Shown: positions 15,069-30,071 of the stretch, in pieces
Layout: every line of letters begins with the position of its first letter
Position numbering within the stretch: the stretch's first letter is position 1
Position numbers and translations under genes: made by a program
The notes under the pieces: model-generated
Databases searched by the model: none
Told to the model about the DNA's origin: nothing
Seen by the model: the letters and a program-made list of their open reading frames with translations, nothing else
Assembly: GCA_003169735.1 (NCBI GenBank)
Contig: PNAP01000025.1
Coordinates: forward strand, 179-64,178
Length of the DNA: 64,000 bases
Reading direction: 5' to 3'
From: Chloroflexota bacterium
Lineage (GTDB): Bacteria > Chloroflexota > Limnocylindria > Limnocylindrales > CSP1-4

Positions 15069-15980
15069 CTACGCCTCGGCCGGGAGGCCCTCGAAGAGAT
15101 CCGTTTCGGGGATGCGCACACCGACGTCCGAGACGCGCAGGGTGAAGTCCTCGGTCGGCTGGACCGCCCGCCACTCATCCGGGGAGAGCATCAGGAAGAA
15201 CCCGTCGGCGGGAAGTTGCGTCACGTGCTCGCGCATCGCGGCCAGCTTGGCCTCGAACGCGTCTGAGACGTCCACGCGCGTGGTCACCGGACCCTGCGCA
15301 TCGGCCATCTTCTTCATGTGGGCTTCGCGGCCGGCCCGCTGCTCGTCGGTCTCGTCCTCGGGCGGCGTCCACCAGGTCTTGACGCCCTTCTCCCTGAGCA
15401 GGTCCTGGAACTCCTGCCGACGGGCGATGTCGAGCACGGTCTCGTACAGCTTGAGAGGCTGCCACGGCTCCAGGCCGTCCTTGAGTTGCTCGGGATACGC
15501 GGCCGAGTCGCCGGCGCGTTCGAAGGCGCGCTTGGTCGTGGTCGCGGCGCGGATGTGGTCGGGATGGCCATAACCGCCGAAATCGTTGTACGAGACGAGC
15601 ACCTGCGGGCGGTACCGGCGGATGAGGAGCACCAGGCGACCGGCGGCCTCGTCCTCGTCGGCCTGCCAGAAGCTGCGCTTGTCCCCGTTCTGTGGCGTGC
15701 CCATCATCCCCGAGTCGTGATAGCCGAGCCACTCGTGCTCGATCGGGCCGAGGCGGGCCAGGGCGCGTTTGAGTTCCTCGGCGCGGATCTCGGCCAGTCG
15801 GGCGTGGTTCTCGGGCGTGTCCATCTCGGGCACGACGATCTCGCCGTGCTCACCGCCCGTGCAGGTGACGCAGATGACGCGGTCGCCCGCGTGCGCGTAG
15901 CGCGACATGACGCCGCCGGTGGCGATCGTCTCGTCGTCGGGGTGGGCATGGACGGTCATGAGGGAGTGTCGATCAGCCAT
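15069..15980 (-). CDS. mca: Mca/MshB (LmbE/PIG-L) family zinc amidase; mycothiol S-conjugate amidase-like
   Basis: TVHAHPDDE, TGGEHGEI, YNDFGGYGHPDHI and C-terminal ETDLFEG align along the whole length with mycobacterial Mca. The stop abuts the convergent S8 gene stop. Confidence 0.75.
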   Translation of the reverse strand: MADRHSLMTVHAHPDDETIATGGVMSRYAHAGDRVICVTCTGGEHGEIVVPEMDTPENHARLAEIRAEELKRALARLGPIEHEWLGYHDSGMMGTPQNGDKRSFWQADEDEAAGRLVLLIRRYRPQVLVSYNDFGGYGHPDHIRAATTTKRAFERAGDSAAYPEQLKDGLEPWQPLKLYETVLDIARRQEFQDLLREKGVKTWWTPPEDETDEQRAGREAHMKKMADAQGPVTTRVDVSDAFEAKLAAMREHVTQLPADGFFLMLSPDEWRAVQPTEDFTLRVSDVGVRIPETDLFEGLPAEA

Positions 15981-16833
15981 GGTCGGATGCTACCCGAGGT
16001 GCGGCGCGGACCGTCGGCCAGAGGGCCAGATCGATCTCCGGGGCGAGTGCAGCGAGTTCGGCAAGGTCGGGCGCATAGGCAGCGGCGAGCGTTGCGCGGA
16101 GGGCGGCCGACAGCTCGAGCTTGTGCCCGGTGGTCGGGTTGACTGGACGCTCGAACGCGCTGGCCGGCGGGCTGAACGGGCGGAGGCCGAGGAAGTCGAA
16201 CGTCCTGGCCAGCTCGGCGGCCGGGTCAGCCCGGCAACGCTCGTACTGGAGGATCAGCACCTGATCGTGCGGCAGGGCCCGGAAGACCCGCCGGAGCTGC
16301 TGCGAGTAGAGGCCGCGCTGGAAGGCGCCCATCGCACCCAGCCGGTCGAGCGGCGACCGCGACAGCTCCTCGGTGTGGGCCATGCTCGACCGGTAGCGCT
16401 CCACGGGGTCGCGCAGGAGGATCAGGATGCGTGCCTCGGGCGCTGCGCGGTGGATGAGCGCCGGAGCCCAGAAGTCGATCATGTAGCCGGGCGTCCACTC
16501 GCCGGAACGGCCGCCCGCCGGCCGCGGGAAGTAGCGGGCGTAGAGCGCCGCGTCCGCGGTCGTGAAGGGGCGCTCCCAGTAGCCGTCGAAGAAGTGCAGC
16601 TCCTTCGGCTGGCTGGCGATGCGATGCACGTCGGGGTGCTCGTGGATGAGCGCGCTCCACCAGGACGTGCCCGCCTTCTGCGCCCCGATGCCCACGAAAT
16701 CGGGCGGTCCGGCGACCCAACCGCGCGGCGTTCCTGGCGGGGCGCCGGGTCCGGGCGGCCTGTGGCCGCGCCATCGCCGCACGGTTCGCAACCCGCGGAC
16801 GGCCTGTTGGCGCACCCGTGCCGATGTCGTCAT
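15973..16833 (-). CDS. PAPS-dependent sulfotransferase family protein, paralog A
   Basis: 5'-PSB loop GIGAQKAGTSWW and 3'-PB motif LLRDPVERYRS. The ATG at 16833 overlaps the stop of paralog B (ATGA), and the stop overlaps the mca start by 8 nt. It is the internal portion of ORF 15973..17070. Confidence 0.7.
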   Translation of the reverse strand: MTTSARVRQQAVRGLRTVRRWRGHRPPGPGAPPGTPRGWVAGPPDFVGIGAQKAGTSWWSALIHEHPDVHRIASQPKELHFFDGYWERPFTTADAALYARYFPRPAGGRSGEWTPGYMIDFWAPALIHRAAPEARILILLRDPVERYRSSMAHTEELSRSPLDRLGAMGAFQRGLYSQQLRRVFRALPHDQVLILQYERCRADPAAELARTFDFLGLRPFSPPASAFERPVNPTTGHKLELSAALRATLAAAYAPDLAELAALAPEIDLALWPTVRAAPRVASDHG

Positions 16834-17720
16834 CGGCCGAACCCGCTCCACAGTGACGGGTCGAAGTCGTCCGGCAGCAGCGCGGCGAGGCGCGCGTTCT
16901 CCGGCGCGTAGGCGTCGGCCAGGGCGGCGCGCTGGTCGGGGCGCAGCTCCGTCTTGGCGACGCGCGATTCGTTGACGCGCCGATCGACGTCGATGGCGTC
17001 GGCGGCGTCCGGATCGAGCCCCAGGAATGCGAAGGTCCGACGCAGCTCTCCGCGTGGATCGCGGACGCAACGCTCGAACTGGAGCACCAGCACCTGCTCA
17101 CGCGGGAAGATCGACCACAGGCGCAGCAGCTGGTCGGCGTAGCAACCTCGCTGGAAGCCGCCGTTGGCGGCGGCGCGCGCCGTCCAGGCAAGCGTCAGGC
17201 GGTTCTCGGTCAGCGTCACGCCGGAGCGGAAGCGCTCGATCGGGTCGCGCAGGAGGACCAGCAGCCTGGCCTCGGGGGCCGCCCGCCGGAGCAGCGCCGG
17301 GATCCAGAAATCGACCATGTAGCCGGGCGTCCACTCGCCGGCCCTGCCACCCGCCGGTCGCGGGAAGAAGCGCGCGTAGGTCGCGGCGTCTGCCTCGCGA
17401 TAGCTGCCGTCCCAGAAGCGGTCGAAGAAGTGGACCTCCTTCGGGACGCCTTCGGCGCGATGGACGAGGGGATGGGTGTGGATCAGCTCATCCCACCAGG
17501 TCGTCCCCGAGCGGGCGGTCCCGACACCGACGAAATCGGGCGGAGCGACGATCCAGCCGGGTGGCGTGGCCGGAGGCTCGTTCCGGGCGGGCGGGGCGGC
17601 CCCACCACCACTTCGAGCGAGGCCGCTGATGCCGCGCGCGATCTTTCGGACGCCGGTCACCGGGCGCGGGGCGAGGGATGCATCGCGGCGATGATACGGG
17701 AGGGCTTCGGGGGCTAGCAT
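16830..17720 (-). CDS. PAPS-dependent sulfotransferase family protein, paralog B
   Basis: GVGTARSGTTWW and LLRDPIERFRS; the last 296 codons of ORF 16830..18962. The upstream 400 codons of that ORF are antisense to the CoA-transferase gene and are rejected. ATG at 17720. Confidence 0.65.
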   Translation of the reverse strand: MLAPEALPYHRRDASLAPRPVTGVRKIARGISGLARSGGGAAPPARNEPPATPPGWIVAPPDFVGVGTARSGTTWWDELIHTHPLVHRAEGVPKEVHFFDRFWDGSYREADAATYARFFPRPAGGRAGEWTPGYMVDFWIPALLRRAAPEARLLVLLRDPIERFRSGVTLTENRLTLAWTARAAANGGFQRGCYADQLLRLWSIFPREQVLVLQFERCVRDPRGELRRTFAFLGLDPDAADAIDVDRRVNESRVAKTELRPDQRAALADAYAPENARLAALLPDDFDPSLWSGFGR

Positions 17721-17738
17721 CGGCGCGTGCCTGACCCC

Positions 17739-18989
17739 ATGAGCGACGCGCGCCCGGAAGGTCCGTCGCGCGGCCCACTGGCCGGCCTCCTGGTTTGCGA
17801 CCTCTCGACCGTGCTCGCCGGCCCGTACTGCACGATGCTCCTGGCGGATCTCGGGGCGGAAGTCATCAAGGTCGAGCCGCCGACCGGCGATCCGACCCGA
17901 CTGTATGGCCCGCCCTACGTCGGTGGCACGGCCGGCGGCGATCCGGGCGAATCGGCCTACTACCTCTCGATCAACCGCAACAAGCGCGGCATCGCGCTCG
18001 ATCTCAAGTCCGACGCCGGCCGCGAGGTCCTGCGGCGGCTCATCGCCCGCAGCGATGTGCTCGTCGAGAACCAGCGGCCGGGCGGCATGGACCGGCTCGG
18101 ATTCCCCGACGCCGAGTTGGAGCGCCTCGATCCCCGCCTGGTCCGACTGTCGATCAGCGGTTACGGTCAGTCCGGCCCGGACGCCGACAAGCCCGGCTTC
18201 GACTTCATCGCCCAGGCGGTCTCCGGACTGATGTCGATCACCGGCCAGCCCGATCGGGCCGACGGACAGCCGACCAAGGTGGGCGTGGCCATCTCCGACC
18301 TGACCACGGGGATGCTCGGTGCAGTGGCCATCCTGGCGGCGCTGCGTGAGCGCGACGTTTCCGGGCGCGGCCAGCGCATCGATCTGAGCCTGCTCGACGC
18401 GACCGTCTCGTGGCTCATCAATCAGGCCGCGAACTACCTCGTGGGCGGCGTGGTGCCGGGGCGGATGGGCAACCTGCATCCCAACATCACGCCCTACGAG
18501 ACGTTCCCGACTGCCGACGGGGAGATCGCCGTGGCGGTCGGGTCGGAGCGGCAGTGGGTGAGGTTCTGCGAGGCTCTCGGTGTCGCGGCGTTGGCCGCCG
18601 ACCCGCGATTCGCCACCAACGGCGCGCGTGTCGCGAACCGTGACGCGCTCCGGGCGCTGTTGGCGCCGCTGTTCGCGGCACGCACCTCGGCCGTGGCGCT
18701 GGCCGAGCTGCAGGCGGCCGACGTGCCCTGCGGCGCGGTCCGCGACCTCGCCCAGGTCTTCGCCGATCCGCAGGTCATCGCCAACGAGATGGTGGCGACG
18801 GTCGAGCATCCGACGATCGGTCCGCTGCGCCTGACGGGCATCCCCTACAAGTTGAGCGCGACGCCGGGGAGCATCCGCCGACCGCCGCCGCTCTTCGGCG
18901 AGCACACCGACGAGATCCTCGCCGAACTCGGATACGCGCCGGCCGAGATCGCCACGCTCCACGCCGAGGGCGCTGCGCGGCGCCGTTAA
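17739..18989 (+). CDS. CoA-transferase family III (CaiB/BaiF) protein
   Basis: N-terminal PLAGLLVCDLSTVLAGPYCTMLLADLGAEVIKVEPP signature. The ATG at 17739 is preferred over the GTG at 17727. Divergent from sulfotransferase B with only an 18-bp gap. Confidence 0.8.
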   Translation: MSDARPEGPSRGPLAGLLVCDLSTVLAGPYCTMLLADLGAEVIKVEPPTGDPTRLYGPPYVGGTAGGDPGESAYYLSINRNKRGIALDLKSDAGREVLRRLIARSDVLVENQRPGGMDRLGFPDAELERLDPRLVRLSISGYGQSGPDADKPGFDFIAQAVSGLMSITGQPDRADGQPTKVGVAISDLTTGMLGAVAILAALRERDVSGRGQRIDLSLLDATVSWLINQAANYLVGGVVPGRMGNLHPNITPYETFPTADGEIAVAVGSERQWVRFCEALGVAALAADPRFATNGARVANRDALRALLAPLFAARTSAVALAELQAADVPCGAVRDLAQVFADPQVIANEMVATVEHPTIGPLRLTGIPYKLSATPGSIRRPPPLFGEHTDEILAELGYAPAEIATLHAEGAARRR

Positions 18990-19022: not shown

Positions 19023-20351
19023 ATGGTGGGAAGCGTAGGCTTGTCGGCGATGATCTTCTCTCGTGCGCGCTGGGTCGCGGTCGCTCTCGCGCTCGGGGCC
19101 ATCGCCGTGGTCGAGTTGCTGAGTGACACCGTGCTCGACTCCGCGCTGACGTTCCCGTGGAACACGCTCATGGTGGTGGCCACCATCGGCATCGTGGGGG
19201 CGCTCGGCGCTGTGCTCGCCTTCCGGAGCATCGATCGGCTGGCCGCGACGCTGCGCGAGCGCAACGCGGAGTTGGAGGCGAGCGAAGCCGCCACGCGGGC
19301 GCTGCTTCGGGTGAGCATCTCGTTATCGACGCTCTCCGAACTCGACCAGATCCTGGGCGCGGTCGTCGAGAACGCCCGCTCGCTGCTCGCCGCCGACGTT
19401 GCGTTGCTCGTGCTCTTCCGTTCCGATGCCACGCTCCGCCTCGCCGCGTCATCCGGCCCAGCTGCCGCCTTCGTCAGCACCGGCGAGCAGCCTGGCACGG
19501 ATTTCCGGCGTTTCGTGGATCCGACGATGGTGCGCAGCCACCTCGCGGCACCGGTCCAACGCGCCGGACGCTCGGTCGGGACGCTGGCCGTTGGTTCCCA
19601 AGAGGAACGGGCCTATGGCGTCGACGCCGTCGAGATCCTCGCCTCGCTCGCCAGCCAGGCCGCCGTCGCCATCGAGAACGAGCGGTTGGCCGAGCAACTG
19701 CGCGAGCTCGCCATCCGCGGCGAGCGCGAACGCATCGCTCGCGAGATGCATGACGGGTTGGCACAGGTGCTCGGCTACGTCAACACCAAGTCGCAGGCGG
19801 TCGAAGAGCTGCTGGCCGGCGGACGCACCGAGGCGGCCCGCGCCCAGCTTGCCGAGCTGGCGGCAGCGGCCCGGTCGGTCTACGTGGATGTGCGTGAAGC
19901 CATCCTCGGCTTGACCAGCCCCATCGCGCCCGAGCGCGGCCTCGTCGGGGCCATCGAGGAGTACGCCCGACGCTTCTCCAGTGCATCGAAACTGGCGACG
20001 TCGGTCGAGGCGAGCCCCATGGCTCGCGAAGTGCGCCTCGCTCCGGAGGCGCAGGCACAGACGTTCCGGATCGTCCAGGAGGCGCTCACGAACGTGCGCA
20101 AGCACGCCGCGGCGCATCGCGCTTCGATCGCCGTCGACTCGGACGCAGGGGAGCTCCGGGTGACGGTCCAGGACGATGGCCGCGGCATCGGGCCCGACCC
20201 GGGCCAGCCCGGCGAGTGGCCGCGTTTCGGCATCAAGGCGATGCATGAGCGCGCCGAGGCGCTTGGCGGGACGCTCCGGATCGAGCGCACGGAGCCCGGC
20301 ACGCGGCTCGTGCTGAGCGTGCCGCTCGGTGCCGCGCTCGAGATCGGCTGA
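19023..20351 (+). CDS. Membrane-anchored GAF-domain sensor histidine kinase (HisKA_3/NarX-type)
   Basis: Two N-terminal TM helices, a GAF domain, an H-box RERIAREMHDGLAQ typical of HisKA_3, and a HATPase_c domain (DDGRGIG). Confidence 0.8.
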   Translation: MVGSVGLSAMIFSRARWVAVALALGAIAVVELLSDTVLDSALTFPWNTLMVVATIGIVGALGAVLAFRSIDRLAATLRERNAELEASEAATRALLRVSISLSTLSELDQILGAVVENARSLLAADVALLVLFRSDATLRLAASSGPAAAFVSTGEQPGTDFRRFVDPTMVRSHLAAPVQRAGRSVGTLAVGSQEERAYGVDAVEILASLASQAAVAIENERLAEQLRELAIRGERERIAREMHDGLAQVLGYVNTKSQAVEELLAGGRTEAARAQLAELAAAARSVYVDVREAILGLTSPIAPERGLVGAIEEYARRFSSASKLATSVEASPMAREVRLAPEAQAQTFRIVQEALTNVRKHAAAHRASIAVDSDAGELRVTVQDDGRGIGPDPGQPGEWPRFGIKAMHERAEALGGTLRIERTEPGTRLVLSVPLGAALEIG

Positions 20352-20995
20352 TGCGCATCCTGCTCGCCGACGATCACTCGCTGTTCCGCGACGGTGTCGC
20401 GTCGCTGCTCGAAGCGTGGGGCCACGAGGTGGTCGGCCAGGCCTCCGATGGCGCCGAGGCCATCGTGCTGGCCGATCGATCGCGTCCCGACCTGGTTCTG
20501 ATGGACGTCCGGATGCCGGTCCTCTCCGGGCTGGCCGCCACGCAGCGCATCAAGGCCGACCACCCTGAGATCCCCATCGTCATGCTCACCGTCAGTGAAG
20601 ACGAGGACGACCTCTTCACCGCCATCAAGGCCGGCGCACAGGGGTATCTGCTCAAGAACCTGGAGAGTCGTCAGTTGCGCCGCATGCTTGAGGCGGTGGC
20701 CCGCGGCGAACCAGCCATCACGCCAGCCACGGCAGCTCGGATCCTCGAGGAATTCGCGCGCATCGACAGAGCCGCCGGCGCTCCGGCCGACCCCGATCGC
20801 CTGACCGACCGCGAGCTGGAGGTACTCGGGCTCGTGACCCGTGGCCTCCGCAACAAGGAGATCGCCGCGCGGCTGGGGATCAGCGAGAACACTGCCAAGT
20901 TCCATCTGAAGAACATCCTCGAGAAGGTGCATGTGCGGAGCCGCACCGAGCTCGCCGCACGAGCGGTCCAGCAACGGCTCGTCGCGGGCGACTGA
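20351..20995 (+). CDS. NarL/FixJ family response regulator (REC + LuxR-type HTH)
   Basis: MRILLADDHSLFRDG...DLVLMDVRMP receiver plus LTDRELEVLGLVTRGLRNKEIAARLGISENTAKFHLKNIL HTH. TGATG overlap with the kinase stop. Confidence 0.9.
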   Translation: MRILLADDHSLFRDGVASLLEAWGHEVVGQASDGAEAIVLADRSRPDLVLMDVRMPVLSGLAATQRIKADHPEIPIVMLTVSEDEDDLFTAIKAGAQGYLLKNLESRQLRRMLEAVARGEPAITPATAARILEEFARIDRAAGAPADPDRLTDRELEVLGLVTRGLRNKEIAARLGISENTAKFHLKNILEKVHVRSRTELAARAVQQRLVAGD

Positions 20996-21057
20996 CCAGC
21001 CCAGCGACTGACCAGCCGAGCCGGCGGCCTCACCGGCACGGGCCGGATGGCCCCCCG

Positions 21058-21082
21058 GCGCCTACCCGTATGAGTAGGGCGC
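21058..21082. promoter_or_regulatory. Imperfect palindrome GCGCCTAC-ccgtatga-GTAGGGCGC upstream of the oxidoreductase operon; contains NarL-heptamer-like TACCCGT / TACTCAT
   Basis: Read directly from the sequence. It lies between the response-regulator stop and the first candidate start of the ferredoxin-GltD gene. Confidence 0.25.
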
Positions 21083-21097
21083 ATCCCCTGCCATCGC

Positions 21098-23122
21098 ATG
21101 TGGTCGTCGGGCTCGCGGGCCGCGATGCTCCGGGACATGGGCTATCGCATCACGATCGATCGGACCGGCTGTATCAACTGCGGCGTCTGCATGGATGTCT
21201 GCCCCGTGCAGGCGCTCGACATGACCCGACCGAACCGTCCCGGTGTGGAGACGGGCGGGCACGGAGCGCCTCTCCGTTGGATGATGGAGTTCCCGACCCA
21301 GGTCGGAGAGTGCATCGGCTGCTCGATCTGTATCCGGGAGTGTCCGGTCGAGGTCATGACCCTCGACGCGGTGTCCGGCTTGACGCCGCTCCAGCCCCGC
21401 CAGGGACCGATCACCCCGCCGTCGCCGATCGGCAACGCGTGGCTGCCGCTCGGCCTGGTGACCCGCGAATCGCTGAAGCCGGATCACCCGGAGCCATACG
21501 ATGGGCTCCACAGTTGGCGCACCTCGGAGCGTCCGCAGTCGTGGCAGGTGTGGCGGACCATGCTGGGCGACGCTCGCCCCGATCCCATCGCCCCGTGCCA
21601 GGCCGCCTGCCCGGCGGGAACTGATGCCGGCCGATACGTCGGCCTGATCGGCAAGGGCCTCTATGCGGATGCCTATGCGGTGGCGGCCGAGGTCAATCCG
21701 TTCCCGTCGGTCTGCGGATGGATCTGCACGGCACCGTGCGAATCGGCCTGCCGCCGGGGGACCCTTGACGAGCCGATCGCAATCCGTGACCTGAAGCGAT
21801 TCGCAGCCGAAGCAGGCAAGTTGCCATCGATCGAGCCGCCAAAGCAGCGCCGGCCCGAGAAGGTCGCCATCGTCGGTGGCGGACCGGCCGGGATGTCCGC
21901 CGCGTACTACCTGGCGCGTCTCGGCTATCCGGTCACCGTCCTCGAGGCGATGCCCGTGCCGGGCGGGATGATGGCCATCGGCATCCCCGAGTACCGCCTG
22001 CCGCGCGACGTGCTGCGCGAGGAGATCGGCCGTATCGTCGGCCTGGGCGTCGATCTTCGCCTCGACACGGCGATGGGCCGCGATTTCACGCTGAGCGACC
22101 TGGAAACGCAGGGCTATCGCGCCATCTTCGTGGCGACGGGCGCGTCCAAGAGTCGGCGCCTGGGCGTCCCCGGAGACGAGTCACCGGGCGTCGTGCCCGC
22201 GACCTACTTCCTGAAGCAGGTCAACCTGGGCGAGAAGCCCAGGCTATCCGGACCGGTGATGGTCGTCGGCGGCGGAAGCACCGCCATGGACGCGGCGCGG
22301 TCCGCGCTTCGCAGCGGCGCGGCGTCAGTGACGATCCTGTATCGCCGCGATCGCGCCGACATGCCTGCGCAGGCCGAGGAGGTCGAGGCGGCGGAGCGTG
22401 AGGGCGTCGTCGTGCGCACCGGTACCTCGGTCGTCGAGGTCCTCGGCGACCACGGCATGACCGCCATCCGGATCGTTCGCCAGGAACCGACCGGTAAGGT
22501 CGAGAGCGGCCGCGCCCTCTTCGCTCCGGTTGCGGGCAGCGAGGAGGAACTGCCCGCGACGACGCTCCTGGTGGCCGTCGGCGAGGAGCCCGACCCATCG
22601 ATCCTGCCCGAGGGGGCCGGCATCGAGGTCAGTGCCTTCGCGGGCATCGCGGCCGACCGACGGACGCTGGCCACCGGTCGCGCTGGTGTCTTCGCCGGTG
22701 GCGACGTCGTGTCGGGCCCCAAGACCATCATCGACGCGGTCGCGGCCGGGCGGCGAGCCGCCGCGTCCATCCACGAGTATCTGTCTGGCGCGCGCGACGG
22801 CGAGGCCGAGATCCTGGCCACGGTCCGCTATCGGACCGCCCATGAGAAGGTCCTGACCGTCAACCTCGCGACCACGCCGCGCACGCACCGCCCGCTGCCG
22901 ATGTACGAGCCGGGCTCGTTCACCGCGACGCAGGTCGGCTTCGACGAGACCGCCGCGCGCCACGAAGCGAGCCGGTGCTTCCGCTGTGACGCCGTCTACC
23001 GCGCCGCCGAGGTCGACGTCGTCGACGGTCGAGGACCCGGTCGCTCGGGGCCACCGACGATATCCACCGCCATGCCGGGAACAACGCCGGCACCCTTCAC
23101 CACACCGGAGGTCGCCTCATGA
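21098..23122 (+). CDS. Fusion of a 2x[4Fe-4S] ferredoxin domain with a GltD-like (glutamate synthase small subunit / DPD PreT-like) FAD/NAD(P)-binding oxidoreductase
   Basis: CINCGVCMDVCP and CIGCSICIRECP ferredoxin motifs; GltD-type cysteine clusters PCQAACPAG and CGWICTAPCESACRRG; FAD fold KVAIVGGGPAGMSAAYYLARLG; NAD(P) fold VMVVGGGSTAMDAARSA. The ATGs at 21125 and 21137 are alternative starts. Confidence 0.8.
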   Translation: MWSSGSRAAMLRDMGYRITIDRTGCINCGVCMDVCPVQALDMTRPNRPGVETGGHGAPLRWMMEFPTQVGECIGCSICIRECPVEVMTLDAVSGLTPLQPRQGPITPPSPIGNAWLPLGLVTRESLKPDHPEPYDGLHSWRTSERPQSWQVWRTMLGDARPDPIAPCQAACPAGTDAGRYVGLIGKGLYADAYAVAAEVNPFPSVCGWICTAPCESACRRGTLDEPIAIRDLKRFAAEAGKLPSIEPPKQRRPEKVAIVGGGPAGMSAAYYLARLGYPVTVLEAMPVPGGMMAIGIPEYRLPRDVLREEIGRIVGLGVDLRLDTAMGRDFTLSDLETQGYRAIFVATGASKSRRLGVPGDESPGVVPATYFLKQVNLGEKPRLSGPVMVVGGGSTAMDAARSALRSGAASVTILYRRDRADMPAQAEEVEAAEREGVVVRTGTSVVEVLGDHGMTAIRIVRQEPTGKVESGRALFAPVAGSEEELPATTLLVAVGEEPDPSILPEGAGIEVSAFAGIAADRRTLATGRAGVFAGGDVVSGPKTIIDAVAAGRRAAASIHEYLSGARDGEAEILATVRYRTAHEKVLTVNLATTPRTHRPLPMYEPGSFTATQVGFDETAARHEASRCFRCDAVYRAAEVDVVDGRGPGRSGPPTISTAMPGTTPAPFTTPEVAS

Positions 23123-23751
23123 CACCAGACCAGGTCTCCGGCTTCTTCGCTGCCGGCGAGAGCTTCGTCGAGGGGACCATCGCGGCCGCCCTCGTCGCGT
23201 TCTGGTTCATCGTCGTGGCCGTGCAGCTGGCACGTCCCTACATGCTCCGCAACCTGAAGAAGTTCACCCTGCGCCTGGGCGCCGACCTGTGGTGGATCAT
23301 CTATGTCGGGCTGCGAGATCTGCTCATCGTGTCGCTGTTCCTCGGCGGGTTCATCTTCTTCTACCCCGATGTCGTGGCCGCTCAGGACCTGCCCATCACC
23401 GGTGGCCTGGCGACCGCCTGCGTCTTCGCCGTAATGCTCCTGAAGCTCGTCTCGAAGGGCGAGGCGGATGTCCGGAGCTATCGCCTCCAGACATTCCTCA
23501 TCGGGCTCGGGGCGACCCTCTACATCGTCCCGTACATCCTGGGCGTCCAGGTCACCCAGCTCGGAGGGGACTCCGCCGACTGGCTGGCCTCGATCTTCGT
23601 CAGCTCGCGCAACACCGATGTGTCCCTGCCGCTGGCATACCTGTCCGCCGCGTTGGTCGGGATCATGGCGCTGGTGGCCGTCGCCTACAACCTGCGCCAG
23701 CCCAGCGCTCGACCGCAACGTGAGATGTCGACCGAGGAGACCGCTCGATGA
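23119..23751 (+). CDS. Integral membrane protein (about 5 TM), paralog A of an operon-specific pair
   Basis: ATGA overlap with the upstream gene and GGAGG Shine-Dalgarno. Hydrophobic helices. Shares ARPYML, G-D-WW-YV-RD and YIVP-I-G blocks with the next gene. Confidence 0.6.
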   Translation: MTPDQVSGFFAAGESFVEGTIAAALVAFWFIVVAVQLARPYMLRNLKKFTLRLGADLWWIIYVGLRDLLIVSLFLGGFIFFYPDVVAAQDLPITGGLATACVFAVMLLKLVSKGEADVRSYRLQTFLIGLGATLYIVPYILGVQVTQLGGDSADWLASIFVSSRNTDVSLPLAYLSAALVGIMALVAVAYNLRQPSARPQREMSTEETAR

Positions 23752-24395
23752 GTGCCGACGACTTCACCCACGCCCTGGTAACGGGCGGTTCCGCATGGCT
23801 GGTCCTGTCGGTGTCGGCGGTCCTGCCGATCCTGTGGGCGTTCACGCTGATCCTCCACTTCGCTCGACCGTACATGCTGCAGTTCCTGCAGACCCTCACG
23901 CTCCGCTTCGGGGGCGACGTGTGGTGGCTCGGCTACGTCCTCTTCCGTGACGGGCTGATGCTCGTCACGCTCGTCCTCAGCATCACCTTCCTGTTCCCGA
24001 ACCTGTACATCGGCCTGGGCCTGCCGCTCACCGCGCCACTCGCCGTGGTCGTGCTGTTCTGGGCATTGACCGTCAAGTTCCTGCGCGACACCGACGACGA
24101 CCAGAAAGCCTTCCAGCTCGAGAGCGTGCTGTTGATCATCGCCTCCGTGCTGTACATCGTCCCGCAGATCTATGGCCTGGAAGCGACCGACCAGGTCGAC
24201 CGGCTGAACTCGGTCGGCCTCGGATGGGTGCCGGGCACGCTCGTGGCGCAAACCGACAGCGGCGTCAACGGCCTCGCCTGGCCGATCCTCGCGGTCAGCC
24301 TGCTGCTCTTCGCCGTCACCGGCGCCGCACTGTTCTGGCGGTTCCTGATCGGCATCGGCCACGAGGCGGAAACGGAGGACGCGACCGCCGCCTGA
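23748..24395 (+). CDS. Integral membrane protein (about 5 TM), paralog B
   Basis: ATGA overlap with paralog A and GAGGAGA Shine-Dalgarno; collinear motif blocks with paralog A. Confidence 0.6.
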   Translation: MSADDFTHALVTGGSAWLVLSVSAVLPILWAFTLILHFARPYMLQFLQTLTLRFGGDVWWLGYVLFRDGLMLVTLVLSITFLFPNLYIGLGLPLTAPLAVVVLFWALTVKFLRDTDDDQKAFQLESVLLIIASVLYIVPQIYGLEATDQVDRLNSVGLGWVPGTLVAQTDSGVNGLAWPILAVSLLLFAVTGAALFWRFLIGIGHEAETEDATAA

Positions 24396-24414
24396 TCCTC
24401 TGCCCTCACTGGGA

Positions 24415-24445
24415 ACGTGAGCCGGGCGTCATGCCCGGCTCACGT
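24415..24445 (+). terminator. Strong GC hairpin (13-bp perfect stem ACGTGAGCCGGGC / GCCCGGCTCACGT, 5-nt loop) 20 nt after the membrane-protein B stop
   Basis: Read directly from the sequence. There is no U-tract, which is common in high-GC genomes. Confidence 0.5.
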
Positions 24446-24539
24446 GATTCGTGGCCACATCTGCCGATGCGAGCCCGGGACACGGTCGCGGCGAGGATTC
24501 CCGATACTTGGCGGCGATCACCTCGCACGGAGCGGACCA

Positions 24540-25358
24540 TTGACCGACACGCGCGAACGCTGGGCGCTCATCCTTGGAGCCAGCAGCGGATTCGGGGAGG
24601 CGACGGCACTCGCCCTGGCCGCCGATGGGTACGAGATCGCCGGTGTCCACCTCGATCGACGAGAAGGACAGCGGCACGCCGACGAGATCAGGGCCCGCAT
24701 CGAGGCGATGGGCCGGCGCGCCGCGTTCTTCAACGGCAACGCCGCCGACGATGAGAATCGGGCCGCGGTCATCGGCCGCGTCGCGGCCATCCTCGCCGAG
24801 CGCCGCGCCGCAGGCGCCCAGCCGTACGTCCGGGTGATGCTCCACTCGCTCGCGTTCGGCACGCTCAAGCCGTTCCTGGCCACGGCACCCGGCGACGCCA
24901 TCAGCCGCCGGAACATGGAGATGACGCTCGATGTGATGGCCCACAGCCTCGTTTACTGGGCGCAGGACGTCTGGCGCGCCGGCCTGTTCGGCGACGGCTC
25001 CAAGATCTACGCCATGACCAGCGAGGGCTCGACGCGGGTGATCGCCTCGTACGGGGCGGTCAGTGCCGCCAAGACGGCGCTCGAGTCGCACTGCCGCCAG
25101 CTGGCCATGGAGTTCGCCCGACTCGGCACCGGCGTGACCGTCAATGCTGTTCGTGCGGGCGTGACGATGACGCCGGCCCTGATGCAGATCCCCGAGCGCG
25201 ACAAGCTCATCGCCCATGCCAACGACAAGAACCCGATGGGCCGCATGACCACCGTCGACGACGTTGCCGCCGCCCTCGTCGCGCTGTCCGGTGACGGCAC
25301 ACAGTGGATCACCGGCAACGTCATCGGCATCGACGGCGGCGAGCTTGTCTCCGGCTGA
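24540..25358 (+). CDS. SDR family NAD(P)-dependent oxidoreductase
   Basis: Rossmann start ALILGASSGFGEATALALAADGY and a YxxxK region (YGAVSAAK). The TTG at 24540 with GGAGCGG 5 nt upstream is preferred; the 41 codons upstream (from the GTG at 24417) are Cys/His/Arg-rich, with no homology. Confidence 0.7.
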   Translation: MTDTRERWALILGASSGFGEATALALAADGYEIAGVHLDRREGQRHADEIRARIEAMGRRAAFFNGNAADDENRAAVIGRVAAILAERRAAGAQPYVRVMLHSLAFGTLKPFLATAPGDAISRRNMEMTLDVMAHSLVYWAQDVWRAGLFGDGSKIYAMTSEGSTRVIASYGAVSAAKTALESHCRQLAMEFARLGTGVTVNAVRAGVTMTPALMQIPERDKLIAHANDKNPMGRMTTVDDVAAALVALSGDGTQWITGNVIGIDGGELVSG

Positions 25359-25391: not shown

Positions 25392-26234
25392 GTGATCCTC
25401 ACCCCGGGTAGTGACGTCGCTCTCCTGCTGGTCAGCGTCGCGGCCGGGCTCCTCGGTGCGCTGGGCGGGGTCGGCGGCGGTCTCATCGTCGTGCCGGTCC
25501 TGACCATCATCTTCGGCGTCGACATCCACCTCGCTGCTGGGGCCAGCATCGTGGCAGTCATCGCGACCAGCTCCGGAGCTGGCGTCGCGTTCGTCCGCGA
25601 CGGACTTGCCAACATCCGCATCGCGATGTTCCTCGGGTGGGCGACCGCCATCGGAGCCATCGTCGGGGCACTGGCCGCATCGGAGCTGCCGGCATCGGTG
25701 CTGCTCCTGGTGCTGGCCGCCGTCCTGCTCGTCTCGGTTGCGATGCAGCTGCTCCGGCTGAGCGAGGAACCAGGATCGGAGCCGCTGCCCGCGCACGACC
25801 GCTTCCGCCTGTCCGGGTCCTACTACAGCATCCGGCTGCGAAGCGAGGTGCCCTACGCCAGCCGACGCGTGCCGCTCGGGCTCGCCCTGATGGCGGTGGC
25901 AGGCGTCGTGTCCGGGCTGCTCGGCATCGGATCGGGTGCCGTGAAGGTGCTCGCCATGGACGGCGCGATGCGGCTGCCCATGAAGGTCAGCTCCGCCACC
26001 AGCAACCTGATGATCGGTGTGACCGCGGCGGCATCGGTCGGCATCTACCTGGCCCGCGGCTACGTGGACGCCCGTCTGGCGGCCCCGGTCGCCCTGGGCA
26101 TCCTGATCGGCGCTCTCGTCGGTGCCCGGATGCTCGGCCGGCTCACCAACCGCAACGTCCGCGTGATCTTCATCCCGGTGCTCCTTGCCATCGCCGTCGA
26201 GACGCTCCTGCGCGGCCTGGGGGTCGGCGCATGA
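25392..26234 (+). CDS. TauE/SafE family sulfite/anion exporter (DUF81)
   Basis: Two-repeat 4+4 TM topology with Gly-rich TM starts (GALGGVGGGLIVVP, GLLGIGSGAV). Confidence 0.8.
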   Translation: MILTPGSDVALLLVSVAAGLLGALGGVGGGLIVVPVLTIIFGVDIHLAAGASIVAVIATSSGAGVAFVRDGLANIRIAMFLGWATAIGAIVGALAASELPASVLLLVLAAVLLVSVAMQLLRLSEEPGSEPLPAHDRFRLSGSYYSIRLRSEVPYASRRVPLGLALMAVAGVVSGLLGIGSGAVKVLAMDGAMRLPMKVSSATSNLMIGVTAAASVGIYLARGYVDARLAAPVALGILIGALVGARMLGRLTNRNVRVIFIPVLLAIAVETLLRGLGVGA

Positions 26235-26590
26235 CCGACACTCGTCTTGACCGCGCGATCGCCCTTGTGATGCGCGTCGGCGTCACCGTCAGCGCCACGC
26301 TCATCACGGTCGGCTTCTTGCTGGCGCTGGTCCTCGGCTGGGCCGGCAACGGCACATCGGCTGACGCCGCCGCCCTCGACACGACCGACTTCGCAAGGCT
26401 GCTGGAGAGGCTGGGGGATTTGCAGCCGCTTGCCATCGTGCAGGCCGGCCTGCTGGTCCTCATCGCCACGCCGGTCGTCCGCGTCGCCGTGACGGCGATC
26501 GGCTTCGCGCAGGAGCGAGACCGGCTCTATGCCGCCACGTCGGTGGTTGTCCTGCTCCTCCTGCTGGCGAGCCTGCTGCTGATCCGATGA
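26231..26590 (+). CDS. DUF1634 family small membrane protein (TauE partner)
   Basis: ATGA overlap with the tauE stop; 119 aa with two TM helices. This is the internal portion of ORF 25637..26590, whose upstream part is out-of-frame junk over tauE. Confidence 0.6.
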   Translation: MTDTRLDRAIALVMRVGVTVSATLITVGFLLALVLGWAGNGTSADAAALDTTDFARLLERLGDLQPLAIVQAGLLVLIATPVVRVAVTAIGFAQERDRLYAATSVVVLLLLLASLLLIR

Positions 26591-26603: not shown

Positions 26604-29600
26604 TCAGGGTGCCGCGCTCGGTGTCGCCGAGGGCAGACCCGCGGGCCCGTAGCCCGTGAGCTCGACGTAAGCCTGGCCGCCATCGGGCTGGCCGTCGATG
26701 GTGGCGTGGACGGTCTGCGAGCCTTCCCAGTAGACGACCCCGGTCGTTGGGCGCGTGTCGAGTTCCTGGTCGGCGACTGTCGGCGTGAGGTCGAGGACGA
26801 GCGATTCGATGGGCAGCACGATGTGCCAGCCGGCCGGATAGACGGCCCCCGTCGCGGGCGACGTCCACGAGCCGGTCGAGCTGACGGTGAAGGCGGTCGA
26901 CGGCAGGTGCTCAACGGTCTGGCCACGAATCAGCGTTCCGTACACGAGCGTGTCCGTGCCCGCGGTGTCGCGCACCAACGAGAGGGTCAGGCCCGTGCCG
27001 TCGTCGAGGTTCACCGCGAACCAATCCCAGCCGCCGCCGCCGACGGCGATGAAGTCGCCCCACTGGTGGTCGAACCAGGCCTCGCCGTCGACCGCCAGCG
27101 TCTGGCCACCGACGGTGATGGTGCCGCTCGCCGAGAGCCGCGGCCGCGAGTAGTAGTACGAGCCACCGGCAGCGCCGAAGTCGACGTACCCGTCGGTGTC
27201 CTCGAGCGCGACCGGGACCGTGCCCGCGTCGAGGGCCAGGTCGATGCCGAACGGCGACGCGTCGGCAGCGGTGCCATGCGCATCGAGCTGGTCGTGGCCG
27301 CCGGAGCCGACCATCGTCCACGGCTGCGCGGTGAGCTGCGGGACGCCCGGCAGGCGATCGCCGACGATGCCGAGATCGAAGCCGCTCGCCGCACCCAGGT
27401 CAACCTCGGGGCCGATCTGGGCGCGCTGGTCGTACAGGAATCGGTCGCCGCTCTCGTCGGTCAGCGCGAGATGCGACGCCCACGCGACCGGGAAACTGCC
27501 GCGCTCTGCCCGGAAGACCACGAACTCGAAGCCGAAGTGCTTGCCTGCCGCTGTCTGCAGGTGGCCGGTGTAATACCACCACTCGGTCAATCGATGGTGG
27601 GGCGCGTCATCGGCGGGCAGGACGATCGGTTGTGGGTCGGGTGGCCGAACGGCGCTGGCCGTCGGGGTCGGCAGCGAGGGCACGACGGACGGCTGGTTGG
27701 CCATCAACAGCCCGGACGGAGAGCAGGCACTCACGAGCAGCACCGCGATCAGCCCGAGCACGACCAGCTGGAGGGCCGTCCCCTCGATGACCGGCAGGCG
27801 TGACGCGATGAGGCGCTTCAGGCGCTCCGGCATCCACCAGTTCCAGTGCCCGAGCAGGCGCATCGTCGACGGCACGAGCAGCGCCCGCACGACGGTGGCA
27901 TCCAGGGCCACGGCGATGGCCACGCCAAGACCGACCGCCTTGATGAGCACGATGTCGGCGAACGCGAACGAACCCGCCACCACGACCACGATGAGCGCGG
28001 CGCTGGTGACGATCCGACCGCTGCGCTCCATGCCACTCGCCACTGCAAGGCGATTGTCGCCGGTCCGGTCGTAGACCTCCTTCATGCGCGTCAGGAGGAA
28101 GACCTCGTAGTCCATCGACAGGCCGAACAGGACGCAGAAGAGGATGACGGGCAGCGTCGTCTCGACGAAACCGAGCGGCTCGAAGCCGAGGATCGCCGAC
28201 AGGTTGCCGTCCTGGAAGATCCAGACGAGTGCCCCGAAACTGGCCACGATGGAGAGCGCGTTCATGATCAGCGCCTTGGCCGGCAGGACGACCGAGCGCA
28301 GCAGCACGAACAGAACGAGGTAGGTCGAGATGAGGATGAACGCGGCGCTGCGCGGGAAGTCGGCGCCCATCCGGTCGACGACGTCCTTGACCTCGGCCGC
28401 GCCGCCGCCGACCGCCACGGTCACGCCGGCCGGCGGTGCCAGCGCCGAGTGCGGGTCGCGCAACTCATCGACCAGGGCGCGGCCCTCCGGCGCGTTCGGC
28501 CCGAAGTCCGTGACGACCGAGAACGCCGTCAGGTCGCCGTTGGTGGTCCGTGCAAGCGTGTCAGCCACGAACCGATCAGCCGGGCCGTTGGGCGCGCCGA
28601 GGATGAGCTGGTACTGCGCCTCGTCCAGGCGCGGGTCGATGTCCACGATGCTGTCGACGCGCGCCACGCGCGGATCGGCCGCGATCTCACGCGAGTACGC
28701 GTACAGCCGCGCGATGTTGTCGGGCGACGTCACCGGTCCGTCCGTCTGGACGGCCAGCAGGAGTGGCGCGAACTCGCCGCGCTGGAAGTCGTCGAGCAGC
28801 AGGTCGAACGCCTGGCGCGACGGCACGCTCGGAGGCAGGATCGATTCATCGGGAGCGTCGAAGCGGACGTGCAGGAACGGAACGCCGAGGAGGACGAGCA
28901 CCGCGAGCGTCGCCACGAAGATCCTGACGGGCTGATCCATGACCCGATTGGCGAGGCGCGCCCACGCGCCTTCGCCGGGCACCGCCGGCGTGCGCGGCCC
29001 GCGGCGCAGGCTGGGCACGCGCAGGGCGTCGATGCGCGGTCCGGCCACCGCCAGCACGGCCGGCAGCAGGGTCACCGCTCCAGCGAGCGCGAAGCCGACG
29101 ACGATCGCGCCGGCGATGCCGACCGAGCGCAGGACCATGAACTCGAACAGGATCAGGCCGATCAACCCAAGCAGCACCGTCACGCCGCTGAAGAAGGCCG
29201 CCCGGCCGGCGGTGGCGACGGTGACGCCGATGGCATCCTCGATGACCGCCCGATCGGGCGATCCGTCCGGCAGCCGGCCGCCGCCGCGCCGCGCCAGCTC
29301 CTCGCGGAAGCGGCTCGACAACAGCAGCGAGTAGTCCACGCCGAGGCCGAATCCGAGCAGCGTGGCGATGTTCAGCACGAAGATGCTCATCGGCATGACC
29401 GAGGCGACGAGGAAGATCACGGCGACCGCGATGAGCACCGAGACGCCGCCCACGATGACCGGCACCCCGGCGGCCACGAAACTGCCGAAGACGAGCAGCA
29501 GGGCGAGCGCCGCCAGCGGCAACGAGATCAGCTCGCTGCGCTGCAGATCCTGCTCACTGACGACCTGGACATCGCCGTAGAAGACGGGGCTGCCGGCGAG

Positions 29601-30071
29601 ATAGGTGCTGATCCCCGGGGCGGCATGGATGGCCGCCTGGATGCCGGGCACCGCGTCGGGCGCGTCATCGGGCGACAGGTCGAGCGAGACGACCTCATAG
29701 ACGGTTCGCCCGTCGGCGCTGACCTGGTTGGGAGCGAGACGATGGGTCAGGATGCCCGTCACGTGCGGTGCTGACGGCACGTCCACCAGCGCGGTCGCGA
29801 CGGCCGACTCGAACGCGAGATCACCAGCCTTGGCGTCGGTGTCGGAGCGGACGACGATGGCCAACGCCGACGGCGGCAGGCCGATGGCCGATTCGAGAAG
29901 CTTGCTCGTGCGCGCTGCCTCGAGATCGTCGAGCGAGAAGCCGCCCGATTGGAGGACGCTCGACGCTCGCGGCGCGAGCGGCAACGCGACCAGCGCCAGC
30001 ACCGCCCAGACGGCGATGACCCACCACCGGTGGCGCGCGCACGCCCGGCCAAGTCGCTCGAACGTCGTCAT
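26604..30071 (-). CDS. MMPL family RND-type transporter fused to a C-terminal AttH/CrtC-like (COG5621, lipocalin-type) domain
   Basis: Residues 1-790 form a 12-TM MMPL core with LGFGLGVDYSLLL and LFGLSMDYEVFLLTRMKE motifs. Residues about 795-1155 carry HHRLTEWWYYTGHL...FGFEFVVFRAE...WFDHQWGDF, characteristic of AttH/hydroxyneurosporene-synthase-like beta-barrels. Confidence 0.8.
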   Translation of the reverse strand: MTTFERLGRACARHRWWVIAVWAVLALVALPLAPRASSVLQSGGFSLDDLEAARTSKLLESAIGLPPSALAIVVRSDTDAKAGDLAFESAVATALVDVPSAPHVTGILTHRLAPNQVSADGRTVYEVVSLDLSPDDAPDAVPGIQAAIHAAPGISTYLAGSPVFYGDVQVVSEQDLQRSELISLPLAALALLLVFGSFVAAGVPVIVGGVSVLIAVAVIFLVASVMPMSIFVLNIATLLGFGLGVDYSLLLSSRFREELARRGGGRLPDGSPDRAVIEDAIGVTVATAGRAAFFSGVTVLLGLIGLILFEFMVLRSVGIAGAIVVGFALAGAVTLLPAVLAVAGPRIDALRVPSLRRGPRTPAVPGEGAWARLANRVMDQPVRIFVATLAVLVLLGVPFLHVRFDAPDESILPPSVPSRQAFDLLLDDFQRGEFAPLLLAVQTDGPVTSPDNIARLYAYSREIAADPRVARVDSIVDIDPRLDEAQYQLILGAPNGPADRFVADTLARTTNGDLTAFSVVTDFGPNAPEGRALVDELRDPHSALAPPAGVTVAVGGGAAEVKDVVDRMGADFPRSAAFILISTYLVLFVLLRSVVLPAKALIMNALSIVASFGALVWIFQDGNLSAILGFEPLGFVETTLPVILFCVLFGLSMDYEVFLLTRMKEVYDRTGDNRLAVASGMERSGRIVTSAALIVVVVAGSFAFADIVLIKAVGLGVAIAVALDATVVRALLVPSTMRLLGHWNWWMPERLKRLIASRLPVIEGTALQLVVLGLIAVLLVSACSPSGLLMANQPSVVPSLPTPTASAVRPPDPQPIVLPADDAPHHRLTEWWYYTGHLQTAAGKHFGFEFVVFRAERGSFPVAWASHLALTDESGDRFLYDQRAQIGPEVDLGAASGFDLGIVGDRLPGVPQLTAQPWTMVGSGGHDQLDAHGTAADASPFGIDLALDAGTVPVALEDTDGYVDFGAAGGSYYYSRPRLSASGTITVGGQTLAVDGEAWFDHQWGDFIAVGGGGWDWFAVNLDDGTGLTLSLVRDTAGTDTLVYGTLIRGQTVEHLPSTAFTVSSTGSWTSPATGAVYPAGWHIVLPIESLVLDLTPTVADQELDTRPTTGVVYWEGSQTVHATIDGQPDGGQAYVELTGYGPAGLPSATPSAAP

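Follow-up and report, generated by a model that had tools for sequence, protein, structure and literature searches.

The subject of this work is a three-gene operon, F-M1-M2, found in a 64,000-nt stretch of DNA (hereafter the window; 69% G+C) from the Chloroflexota bacterium assembly GCA_003169735.1 (contig PNAP01000025.1; Limnocylindrales; CSP1-4). Our preferred reading, to which we give a little under an even chance, is that this operon is regulated by a two-component system (TCS) and encodes a membrane-docked NADPH dehydrogenase of new architecture, which would deliver electrons to a lipophilic acceptor, most likely menaquinone. In F, a ferredoxin domain for two [4Fe-4S] clusters with an extension of ~70 amino acids (aa), together designated Fd-ext, is joined to a flavoprotein, and M1 and M2 are small membrane proteins with five transmembrane (TM) helices. 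The genes are placed as follows:

21137 to 23122, plus strand: F, Fd-ext fused to an NADPH-FAD module (longest open reading frame, ORF, 21098 to 23122, 674 aa)
23119 to 23751, plus strand: M1, 210 aa, 5-TM
23748 to 24395, plus strand: M2, 215 aa, 5-TM, paralogue of M1

The three genes form an operon and are tightly coupled, with an ATGA overlap at each of the F/M1 and M1/M2 junctions and with Shine-Dalgarno sequences before M1 (GGAGG, 8-12 nt upstream of 23119) and before M2 (GAGGAG, upstream of 23748); all these elements were verified, and with them the translational coupling claimed in an earlier note on this DNA. For the distribution of the operon, one genome per GTDB species was scanned, yielding 474 stretches that encode relatives; the best 80 of these all belong to Chloroflexota metagenome-assembled genomes (MAGs), and the close relatives are all from Candidatus Limnocylindrales/Limnocylindria (Chloroflexota) MAGs. 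Gene order was examined by tblastn with the window proteins, and F, M1 and M2 follow each other in the same order in 84/84 genome loci and in ~30 further metagenome loci, so that the trio, whose lack of conservation would have spoken against the earlier proposal, is kept as a unit in >100 loci and is carried by essentially all Limnocylindria genomes sampled. When all ORFs within +/-7 kb of M1 were clustered for 82 loci, only a kinase (64 loci), a regulator (60 loci), F, M1 and M2 recurred, the rest being variable; no third partner or substrate-related gene was conserved in these bacterial loci, and partner genes of the NfnA/S type with [2Fe-2S] and FAD, or of the NfnB/C type (Bfu core), were found in none of them. 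GltB is likewise absent from the neighbourhood in the window and from the orthologous loci. Because these partner genes are absent, F is not, in its context, a subunit of glutamate synthase or of an Nfn enzyme.

The F protein is cytoplasmic, and its NADPH/FAD module belongs to the NfnA/NfnB/GltD type. Its Pfam domains (Fer4 dicluster, residues 18-88; Fer4_20, 165-239, E-value (E) 3e-16; Pyr_redox_2, 255-551, E 1e-37; and a NAD_binding_8 match, E 1e-10) agree with the previous description of a 2x[4Fe-4S] ferredoxin fused to a GltD-type NAD(P)H-FAD part with cysteine clusters. Fd-ext spans residues ~14-160 in the 674-aa numbering, and since alignments of the F orthologues begin at residue 14 in nearly all loci, translation probably starts at the ATG at 21137 (MGYRITID...) and not at 21098. 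Residues ~152-574 match residues 92-512 of NfnA from Thermococcus sibiricus NfnABC (PDB 9n5u_A; E 9e-105). The closest solved relatives are 9n5u_A, 9bov_A and StnC (8oh5_C), followed more distantly by NfnB/NfnL (4ylf_B, 5jca_L) and GltD (6s6s_G, 2vdc_G), with E from 8.5e-80 to 1.4e-53; apart from the best model, which is considered below, all NCBIfam scores of F were far under their cut-offs.

The individual motifs agree with this placement. A FAD-binding Rossmann GxGxxG motif (VAIVGGGPAGMSAAYYL) aligns with NfnA and NfnB, and a second Rossmann fold is followed by the YRR motif ILYRRDRADMPA, aligned with VVYRRSKSEMPA of NfnA; the segment VVGGGSTAMDAARSALRSGAASVTILYRRDRADMPA aligns with VVYRRSKSEMPA (NfnA) and IVYRRTEREMPA (NfnB) over the Arg-Arg motif for the 2'-phosphate of NADPH, and F is accordingly predicted to be specific for this nucleotide. 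The GltD-like part contains eight Cys for two [4Fe-4S] clusters (CQAACP, CGWICTAPCESAC and the C-terminal RCFRC), the N-terminal domain contains two CxxCxxCxxxCP motifs, and from this count F is expected to contain four [4Fe-4S] clusters besides FAD. By all its sequence features, the core of F is assigned to the GltD/NfnB/NfnA flavoprotein superfamily. In NfnABC, the FAD homologous to that of F is the non-bifurcating entry point of NADPH electrons and feeds a [4Fe-4S] chain (PMC12018979).

The alignment of F to 9bov_A and StnC extends to a C-terminal EASRCxxC motif, and RCFRC aligns with the same motif in both. In F this segment reads HEASRCFRCD (22970 to 22990, residues ~622-630), and the EAxRCxxC CxxC found at the N-terminus of GltD/NfnB thus sits at the C-terminus, as in StnC and 9bov_A. 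With respect to NfnB/GltD, the first CxxC of the cluster motif has apparently moved to the C-terminus of F, which points to a circularly permuted cluster-binding segment in the F/StnC/9bov_A subfamily. NfnA (NfnABC, 9n5u), StnC (S. ovata, 8oh5) and 9bov_A represent the GltD-like module, with NADPH site, FAD and [4Fe-4S], through which electrons enter Bfu-type transhydrogenases; F has the same two Rossmann folds, for FAD and for NADPH, and the same YRR motif for NADPH. Unlike NfnA/StnC, F has neither formate-dehydrogenase-like or polyferredoxin C-terminal domains nor NfnB/C (Bfu) partners, and it carries the N-terminal Fd-ext and has membrane proteins encoded beside it; for the proximal cluster, the motif of F contains four Cys (CGWICTAPCESAC), whereas NfnA uses a Lys ligand (PMC12018979). 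NfnB/NfnL and GltD have the same fold, FAD, NADPH and two [4Fe-4S] clusters, but F differs from them in its extra ferredoxin domain at the N-terminus and in the missing NfnA/S or GltB partner gene.

The evidence that links the ferredoxin part of F to the membrane proteins comes from archaea. The most divergent M-family proteins (233-340 aa) are encoded in MAGs of Candidatus Marsarchaeota, Micrarchaeota/Micrarchaeales and Nitrososphaerota, where a single M gene is directly followed by a gene for a 2x[4Fe-4S] ferredoxin of 147-169 aa in 15/15 metagenome loci. The same pair was found in three additional loci, namely a 727-kb Micrarchaeota contig and two Nitrososphaerota-type contigs (L165, L169 and L170), the ferredoxins measuring 144-179 aa over all these loci, and the 295-aa protein upstream of the ferredoxin in L169 is an M-family member with an hhalign probability of 99.8%. 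These archaeal ferredoxins align with residues 14-160 of F, including the cluster motifs, a WMMExP insert and the ~70-residue C-terminal extension, in which the motifs PLSxYTR-LK, SPW and WRxWRTM are common to both. No GltD-like gene lies near the archaeal pair, and the only further conserved neighbours in these loci are small ferredoxins and HTH_10/V4R regulators, which are confined to one subgroup.

Because archaeal M always pairs with an Fd-ext homologue and no GltD-like gene lies near, the ancestral unit is, as read from these sequences, M plus Fd-ext, onto whose ferredoxin the Limnocylindria would have fused an NADPH-FAD-FeS (iron-sulfur) module while duplicating M. Indirectly, this co-inheritance across two domains of life, the strongest evidence at hand, suggests that Fd-ext binds M. 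All testable points of the earlier interpretation held; what it did not recognise is that the M family's conserved partner is limited to the ferredoxin domain with its extension and does not include the GltD-like part. In the Nitrososphaerota-like subgroup (L087, L088, L089, L169, L170), a gene for a dicluster ferredoxin of 89-119 aa, an HTH_10 regulator and a V4R-domain protein are found nearby; the small ferredoxin gene close to the archaeal pair hints at a soluble ferredoxin as redox partner there. In L086-L089, a conserved protein of 148-176 aa without Pfam match follows Fd-ext.

These observations bear on the view that the genes are coincidental neighbours, F being a soluble small subunit of glutamate synthase or an Nfn-type enzyme and M1/M2 being unrelated to it. 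F does score well against GltD/NfnB models; however, no locus has a GltB or NfnA/S partner, the order of these translationally coupled genes is invariant in >100 loci, and the M family is independently linked to a ferredoxin domain in archaea, so that we regard this view as effectively refuted.

M1 and M2 are, as stated before, mutual 5-TM paralogues, with 30% identity across 171 residues (BLASTP E 1e-26) and five hydrophobic helices each, according to the sequence and to an AlphaFold2 (AF2) model. M2 retains every residue that is invariant in the family and is the presumed heterodimer partner of M1; in the bacterial loci it stands directly after M1 in every one, with 57-72% identity, and M1 itself is 65-79% identical within Limnocylindria, an identical M1 being encoded in a Stordalen Mire MAG (GCA_003131865.1). 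The family is small, comprising 256 clusters at 50% identity among 1.84 billion representatives; apparent fusion representatives of 590-717 aa were discarded as run-on F+M gene calls without new architecture. No Pfam or NCBIfam match was obtained for M1 or M2, 27 diverse family members compared with Pfam at a permissive E<=5 gave scattered single matches only and nothing consistent, and an M profile searched against all PDB sequences returned zero matches at E<=10. The AF2 model is confident (predicted local distance difference test 85.9, M1) and resembles generic helical bundles only. These searches uphold the earlier statement that the membrane proteins match no membrane-anchor family that could be named, and they place them in no described family.

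Two residues, D56 and R66, are invariant in every part of the M family, and R39, Y41, W59, D67 and P83 are nearly so; an alignment of 61 sequences has R39, Y41, L46, L51, R52, D56, W58, W59, R66 and P83 as invariant positions. The invariant residues belong to loop 1 on the cytoplasmic side (ARPY...KFxLRLGAD) and to TM2, where they occupy its cytoplasmic start (WW) and a position ~10 residues deeper (RD). An N-out/C-in topology is indicated by the charge distribution (in M1, loop 1 has five Lys/Arg, loop 3 and the C-terminal tail have four each, and the other loops have 0-1) and by the relatives P0130 and P0136, in which a signal peptide and an extracellular domain precede the membrane part. 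Such N-terminal additions consist either of a domain of ~100 aa that is immunoglobulin-like by eye, without Pfam match, or, in P0154, of an acidic repeat rich in His/Asp/Glu. The family alignments show no conserved His or Cys, position 36 being H or Q, which bears out the previously noted absence of a haem-ligand pattern in M1/M2; the membrane part is therefore unlikely to contain a haem or FeS cofactor.

Several known membrane proteins were considered as counterparts of M and rejected. The haem-handling bundles CtaA, CcsBA and CcmF were ruled out since the M family has no conserved His, and the known haem-b anchors (NarI, HdrE, SdhC/D types A-C and DsrM) were set aside for the lack of an invariant His. 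An NrfD/PsrC-type subunit would call for an NrfD sequence match and 8-10 TM helices, neither of which is seen. RnfA/RnfE and NqrD/NqrE are, as M1/M2, pairs of paralogous polytopic subunits of ~200 aa, and they belong to membrane complexes linked to ferredoxin or NAD(P)H; M, however, lacks the Cys pair that holds an intramembrane FeS cluster, has no Rnf-Nqr Pfam match, no conserved Cys and five instead of six TM helices, and the other Rnf/Nqr subunits are absent. The overall logic is also alike in haem-free membrane-anchored FeS dehydrogenases, namely type D SdhCD and NrfD/PsrC-type subunits such as ActF.

Under our preferred reading, M1 and M2 would form a heterodimer whose two cytoplasmic loops, both highly conserved, serve as docking site for the Fd-ext of cytoplasmic F, and electrons would pass from NADPH to FAD, then through two and again two [4Fe-4S] clusters, to a lipophilic acceptor, most likely menaquinone. 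The acceptor pocket would lie at the cytoplasmic face of the membrane, formed by Arg39, Tyr41, Arg52, Asp56, Trp58 and Trp59 together with the buried Arg66-Asp67; Arg, Tyr, Asp and Trp are the types of residue that line the quinone sites beside the last FeS cluster in succinate:quinone oxidoreductases. No haem would be involved, as in the haem-free anchors of other FeS dehydrogenases, and electron transfer across the membrane is unlikely because M has no metal or haem ligands. In archaea, the M plus ferredoxin module would take electrons from a soluble ferredoxin or from another donor.

The following points weigh against this reading. The best NCBIfam model for F, PRK12771, scores 463.7 bits, under its cut-off of 516. 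The docking of F on M1/M2 is deduced from gene co-occurrence, and it is the position of the conserved M residues that would place the system among quinone reductases; no quinone-binding motif or homologue of a quinone site was identified in M. Many Micrarchaeota have only partial respiratory chains (PMC8407392), which makes a quinone pool in every host uncertain. Furthermore, the invariant charged residues at mid-membrane, R66 and D67, and the conserved polar residues of the outer face, E18, T20, S162 and N165, would be equally compatible with an ion pathway. In that case a minimal Rnf/Fix-like system could be formed by M1/M2, or by the M dimer in archaea, around the buried R66/D67, in which oxidation of NADPH or ferredoxin drives H+/Na+ translocation, or in which the proton-motive force drives electrons from quinol to NADP+ or ferredoxin; we consider this quite unlikely.

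The absence of cofactor ligands in M also fits a role as pure anchor, in which M1/M2 would tether F, or the archaeal ferredoxin, for another membrane enzyme, such as a complex I without NuoEFG, a desaturase/hydroxylase or a terminal reductase. Consistent with this, Fd-ext best matches, weakly, ferredoxins of the NuoI type, and the complex I of DPANN archaea lacks the NADH module, ferredoxin having been proposed as its donor (PMC8407392). The similarity is limited, since the best NCBIfam match of Fd-ext (TIGR01971, NuoI) reaches 42-43.5 bits against a cut-off of 113, and Fd-ext was thus rejected as a member of NuoI; as in NuoI/FpoI-type subunits of complex I, it has two CxxCxxCxxxCP motifs with a long insert, but the C-terminal extension with PLSxYTR/SPW/WRxWRTM is specific to the Fd-ext family. 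Conservation is moreover extreme for a passive role, given the identity of M1 across the class, the polar intramembrane residues are invariant from bacteria to archaea, and the surroundings of the operon hold no third conserved partner gene; we consider the anchor an unlikely explanation.

Alternatively, M could itself be a membrane-integral reductase of a hydrophobic substrate other than quinone (an isoprenoid, a pigment or a xenobiotic), to which F or the ferredoxin supplies electrons. A conserved polar pocket within the bilayer, flanking genes that differ between loci and a two-component control suited to inducible detoxification or modification would fit such an enzyme, yet no substrate-related genes are conserved nearby, M has no homology to known membrane reductases, and the spread from soil Chloroflexota to acidophilic DPANN archaea favours a housekeeping redox role; we hold this to be very unlikely.

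The combination of an NfnA-type NADPH module, a NuoI-like ferredoxin with its own extension and a new 5-TM family appears to be undescribed: no description of the F-M1-M2 system was found in the literature on Limnocylindria respiration, on membrane-bound NfnB/GltD or on ferredoxin/quinone links in Micrarchaeota/Marsarchaeota. It is possible, with clearly less than an even chance, that M plus Fd-ext constitutes an unrecognised haem-free electron-input module of respiratory membranes, acting as ferredoxin:quinone oxidoreductase in Micrarchaeota, Marsarchaeota and Nitrososphaerota and, once fused to an NfnA-type flavoprotein, as a new type of NADPH:quinone oxidoreductase in Limnocylindria, perhaps with ion coupling through the buried Asp/Arg. 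If so, the module would be a candidate route for low-potential electrons into the quinone pool without NuoEFG or NDH-2, and an NADPH:quinone oxidoreductase of this kind would add a further class of respiratory NAD(P)H dehydrogenase to NDH-1, NDH-2 and Nqr. Limnocylindria (Ellin6529) are among the commonest uncultured Chloroflexota of soil and freshwater. M1/M2 also represent a membrane subunit family that is absent from Pfam and NCBIfam, and the archaeal M with its free ferredoxin would offer a testable answer to the question of ferredoxin reoxidation in aerobic archaea with minimal genomes.

The layout of regulator, operator and promoter of the operon is well defined and open to direct testing. 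The elements upstream of F in the window are:

19023 to 20351, plus strand: sensor histidine kinase with two N-terminal TM helices (Pfam: GAF_3, E 4e-10; HisKA_3, 1e-13; HATPase_c, 5e-11)
20351 to 20995, plus strand: NarL-family response regulator (Pfam: Response_reg, E 1e-29; GerE, 2e-19)
21040 to 21053, no strand: palindrome GGGCCGGATGGCCC (GGGCC-N4-GGCCC), ~20 nt upstream of the operator-like repeat
21061 to 21078, no strand: operator-like inverted repeat CCTACCC-GTAT-GAGTAGG (family consensus CCYACCCG-N4-CGGGTRGG, often with a second copy)
21124 to 21129, plus strand: GATGCT box, candidate -10 promoter element, its first base 13 nt before the ATG at 21137

The kinase and regulator genes overlap at 20351, and their domains, together with their position next to the operon, confirm the pair of GAF kinase and NarL regulator that had been recognised earlier. 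The pair lies directly upstream of F on the same strand, with the regulator end within 600 nt, in 76/101 loci, or in 64/82 when counted by clustering; in three loci it is distant, downstream on the other strand, and ~15-25 loci have no pair. Orthologues of the regulator, 63-83% identical, precede F in most loci. The regulator scores 172 bits with the NCBIfam NarL model, under its cut-off of 250, and since the NarL, NarX and NarQ equivalog scores of the pair are all under their cut-offs, these proteins are classed by sequence as members of the NarL/FixJ type and not as orthologues of the nitrate sensors. The GAF domain of the kinase gave no informative PDB relative.

The imperfect palindrome pointed out before at 21058 to 21082 proved to contain a conserved motif, found in TCS-linked loci only and at a fixed distance from the promoter-like box. 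In its strict form, the palindrome is present in 15/76 TCS-linked loci (0.05 expected from shuffles) and in 0/25 unlinked loci, and its positions are concentrated between -93 and -101 relative to the start codon; within the window, only the copy at 21061 to 21078 matches the derived pattern exactly, and it is presumed to be a binding site of the NarL-type regulator. An exact GATGCT occurs in 28/73 unique linked loci, mostly at -29 to -40 relative to the ATG. Of these 28 loci, 25 have a half-site that begins 60-63 nt before the box (62 nt in the window), and 13 have a second one 38-42 nt before it. A scan for the sigma-70 consensus found nothing; should GATGCT nevertheless act as -10 element, the half-sites would be centred close to -65 and -41, positions typical of an activator. 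The GAF kinase and the NarL-type regulator would activate the operon through CCYACCCG-N4-CGGGTRGG sites upstream of this -10-like box.

In the window, and also in L028, L073, L074 and L081, GATGCT is placed at -13 from the ATG. The mRNA of F may be leaderless in this genome, because the box stands only 13 nt before the ATG at 21137 and no Shine-Dalgarno sequence precedes this codon. At 21082 to 21103, ~38-42 nt upstream of GATGCT, a second conserved element reads CATCCCC...CATGTGG here and CCCATCCCGTCGCGTGTGTG or CCCACCCGGTCGAGGGTGG elsewhere, and is probably a second, degenerate site of the regulator. The GGGCC-N4-GGCCC palindrome is present in 33/66 linked loci (5.0 expected from shuffles) and in 14/22 unlinked loci (1.0 expected), and may serve as a second operator, terminate the regulator gene or belong to a repeat element. 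It is longer in some loci, reaching GTGCCGTTCGGCCCGGGCCGAACGGCAC, and in unlinked loci it is followed by another conserved element, GGCCGGAACGGCAC(A/G)TGGC.

Downstream of M2 the window contains a further element:

24415 to 24445, plus strand: hairpin with a perfect 13-bp stem and a 5-nt loop, after M2

The hairpin region folds with -36.4 kcal/mol (z = -3.5 vs shuffles). Of the earlier statement that the unit ends here, the perfect stem stands, while no U-tract is present and the terminator scan makes no call; the hairpin is nevertheless the probable end of the operon, though without a U-tract. The next gene encodes a FabL/FabI-like short-chain dehydrogenase/reductase (SDR), whose longest ORF (24417 to 25358, plus strand) starts with a GTG at 24417, inside the hairpin. 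Since the SDR orthologues align only from residue ~42-44, its real start probably lies ~40 codons later, near 24540, which would leave the hairpin intergenic.

Further downstream, a TauE/SafE-family permease gene (25392 to 26234, plus strand) is followed by a gene for a DUF1634 protein (26231 to 26590, plus strand) with an overlap of 4 nt, and the two look like a conserved pair; in L005, an SDR gene and a TauE gene stand on the opposite side of the cluster formed by the kinase, the regulator and F-M1-M2. On the minus strand, an ORF of 1155 aa (26604 to 30071) encodes an MMPL transporter (E 6e-82) with lipocalin domains of the CrtC/AttH-like kind (E 6e-34 and 1e-31) fused at the C-terminus, whereas in L004 the AttH-like and MMPL parts are separate neighbouring genes. 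Upstream of the kinase, also on the minus strand, two tandem paralogous sulfotransferases (15973 to 17070 and 16830 to ~18100; Sulfotransfer_3/_1, E 1e-13 to 8e-15) share a GW(I/V)xxPPDFVG(I/V)G...WW motif and adjoin a family III CoA-transferase (17727 to 18989; E 1e-135).

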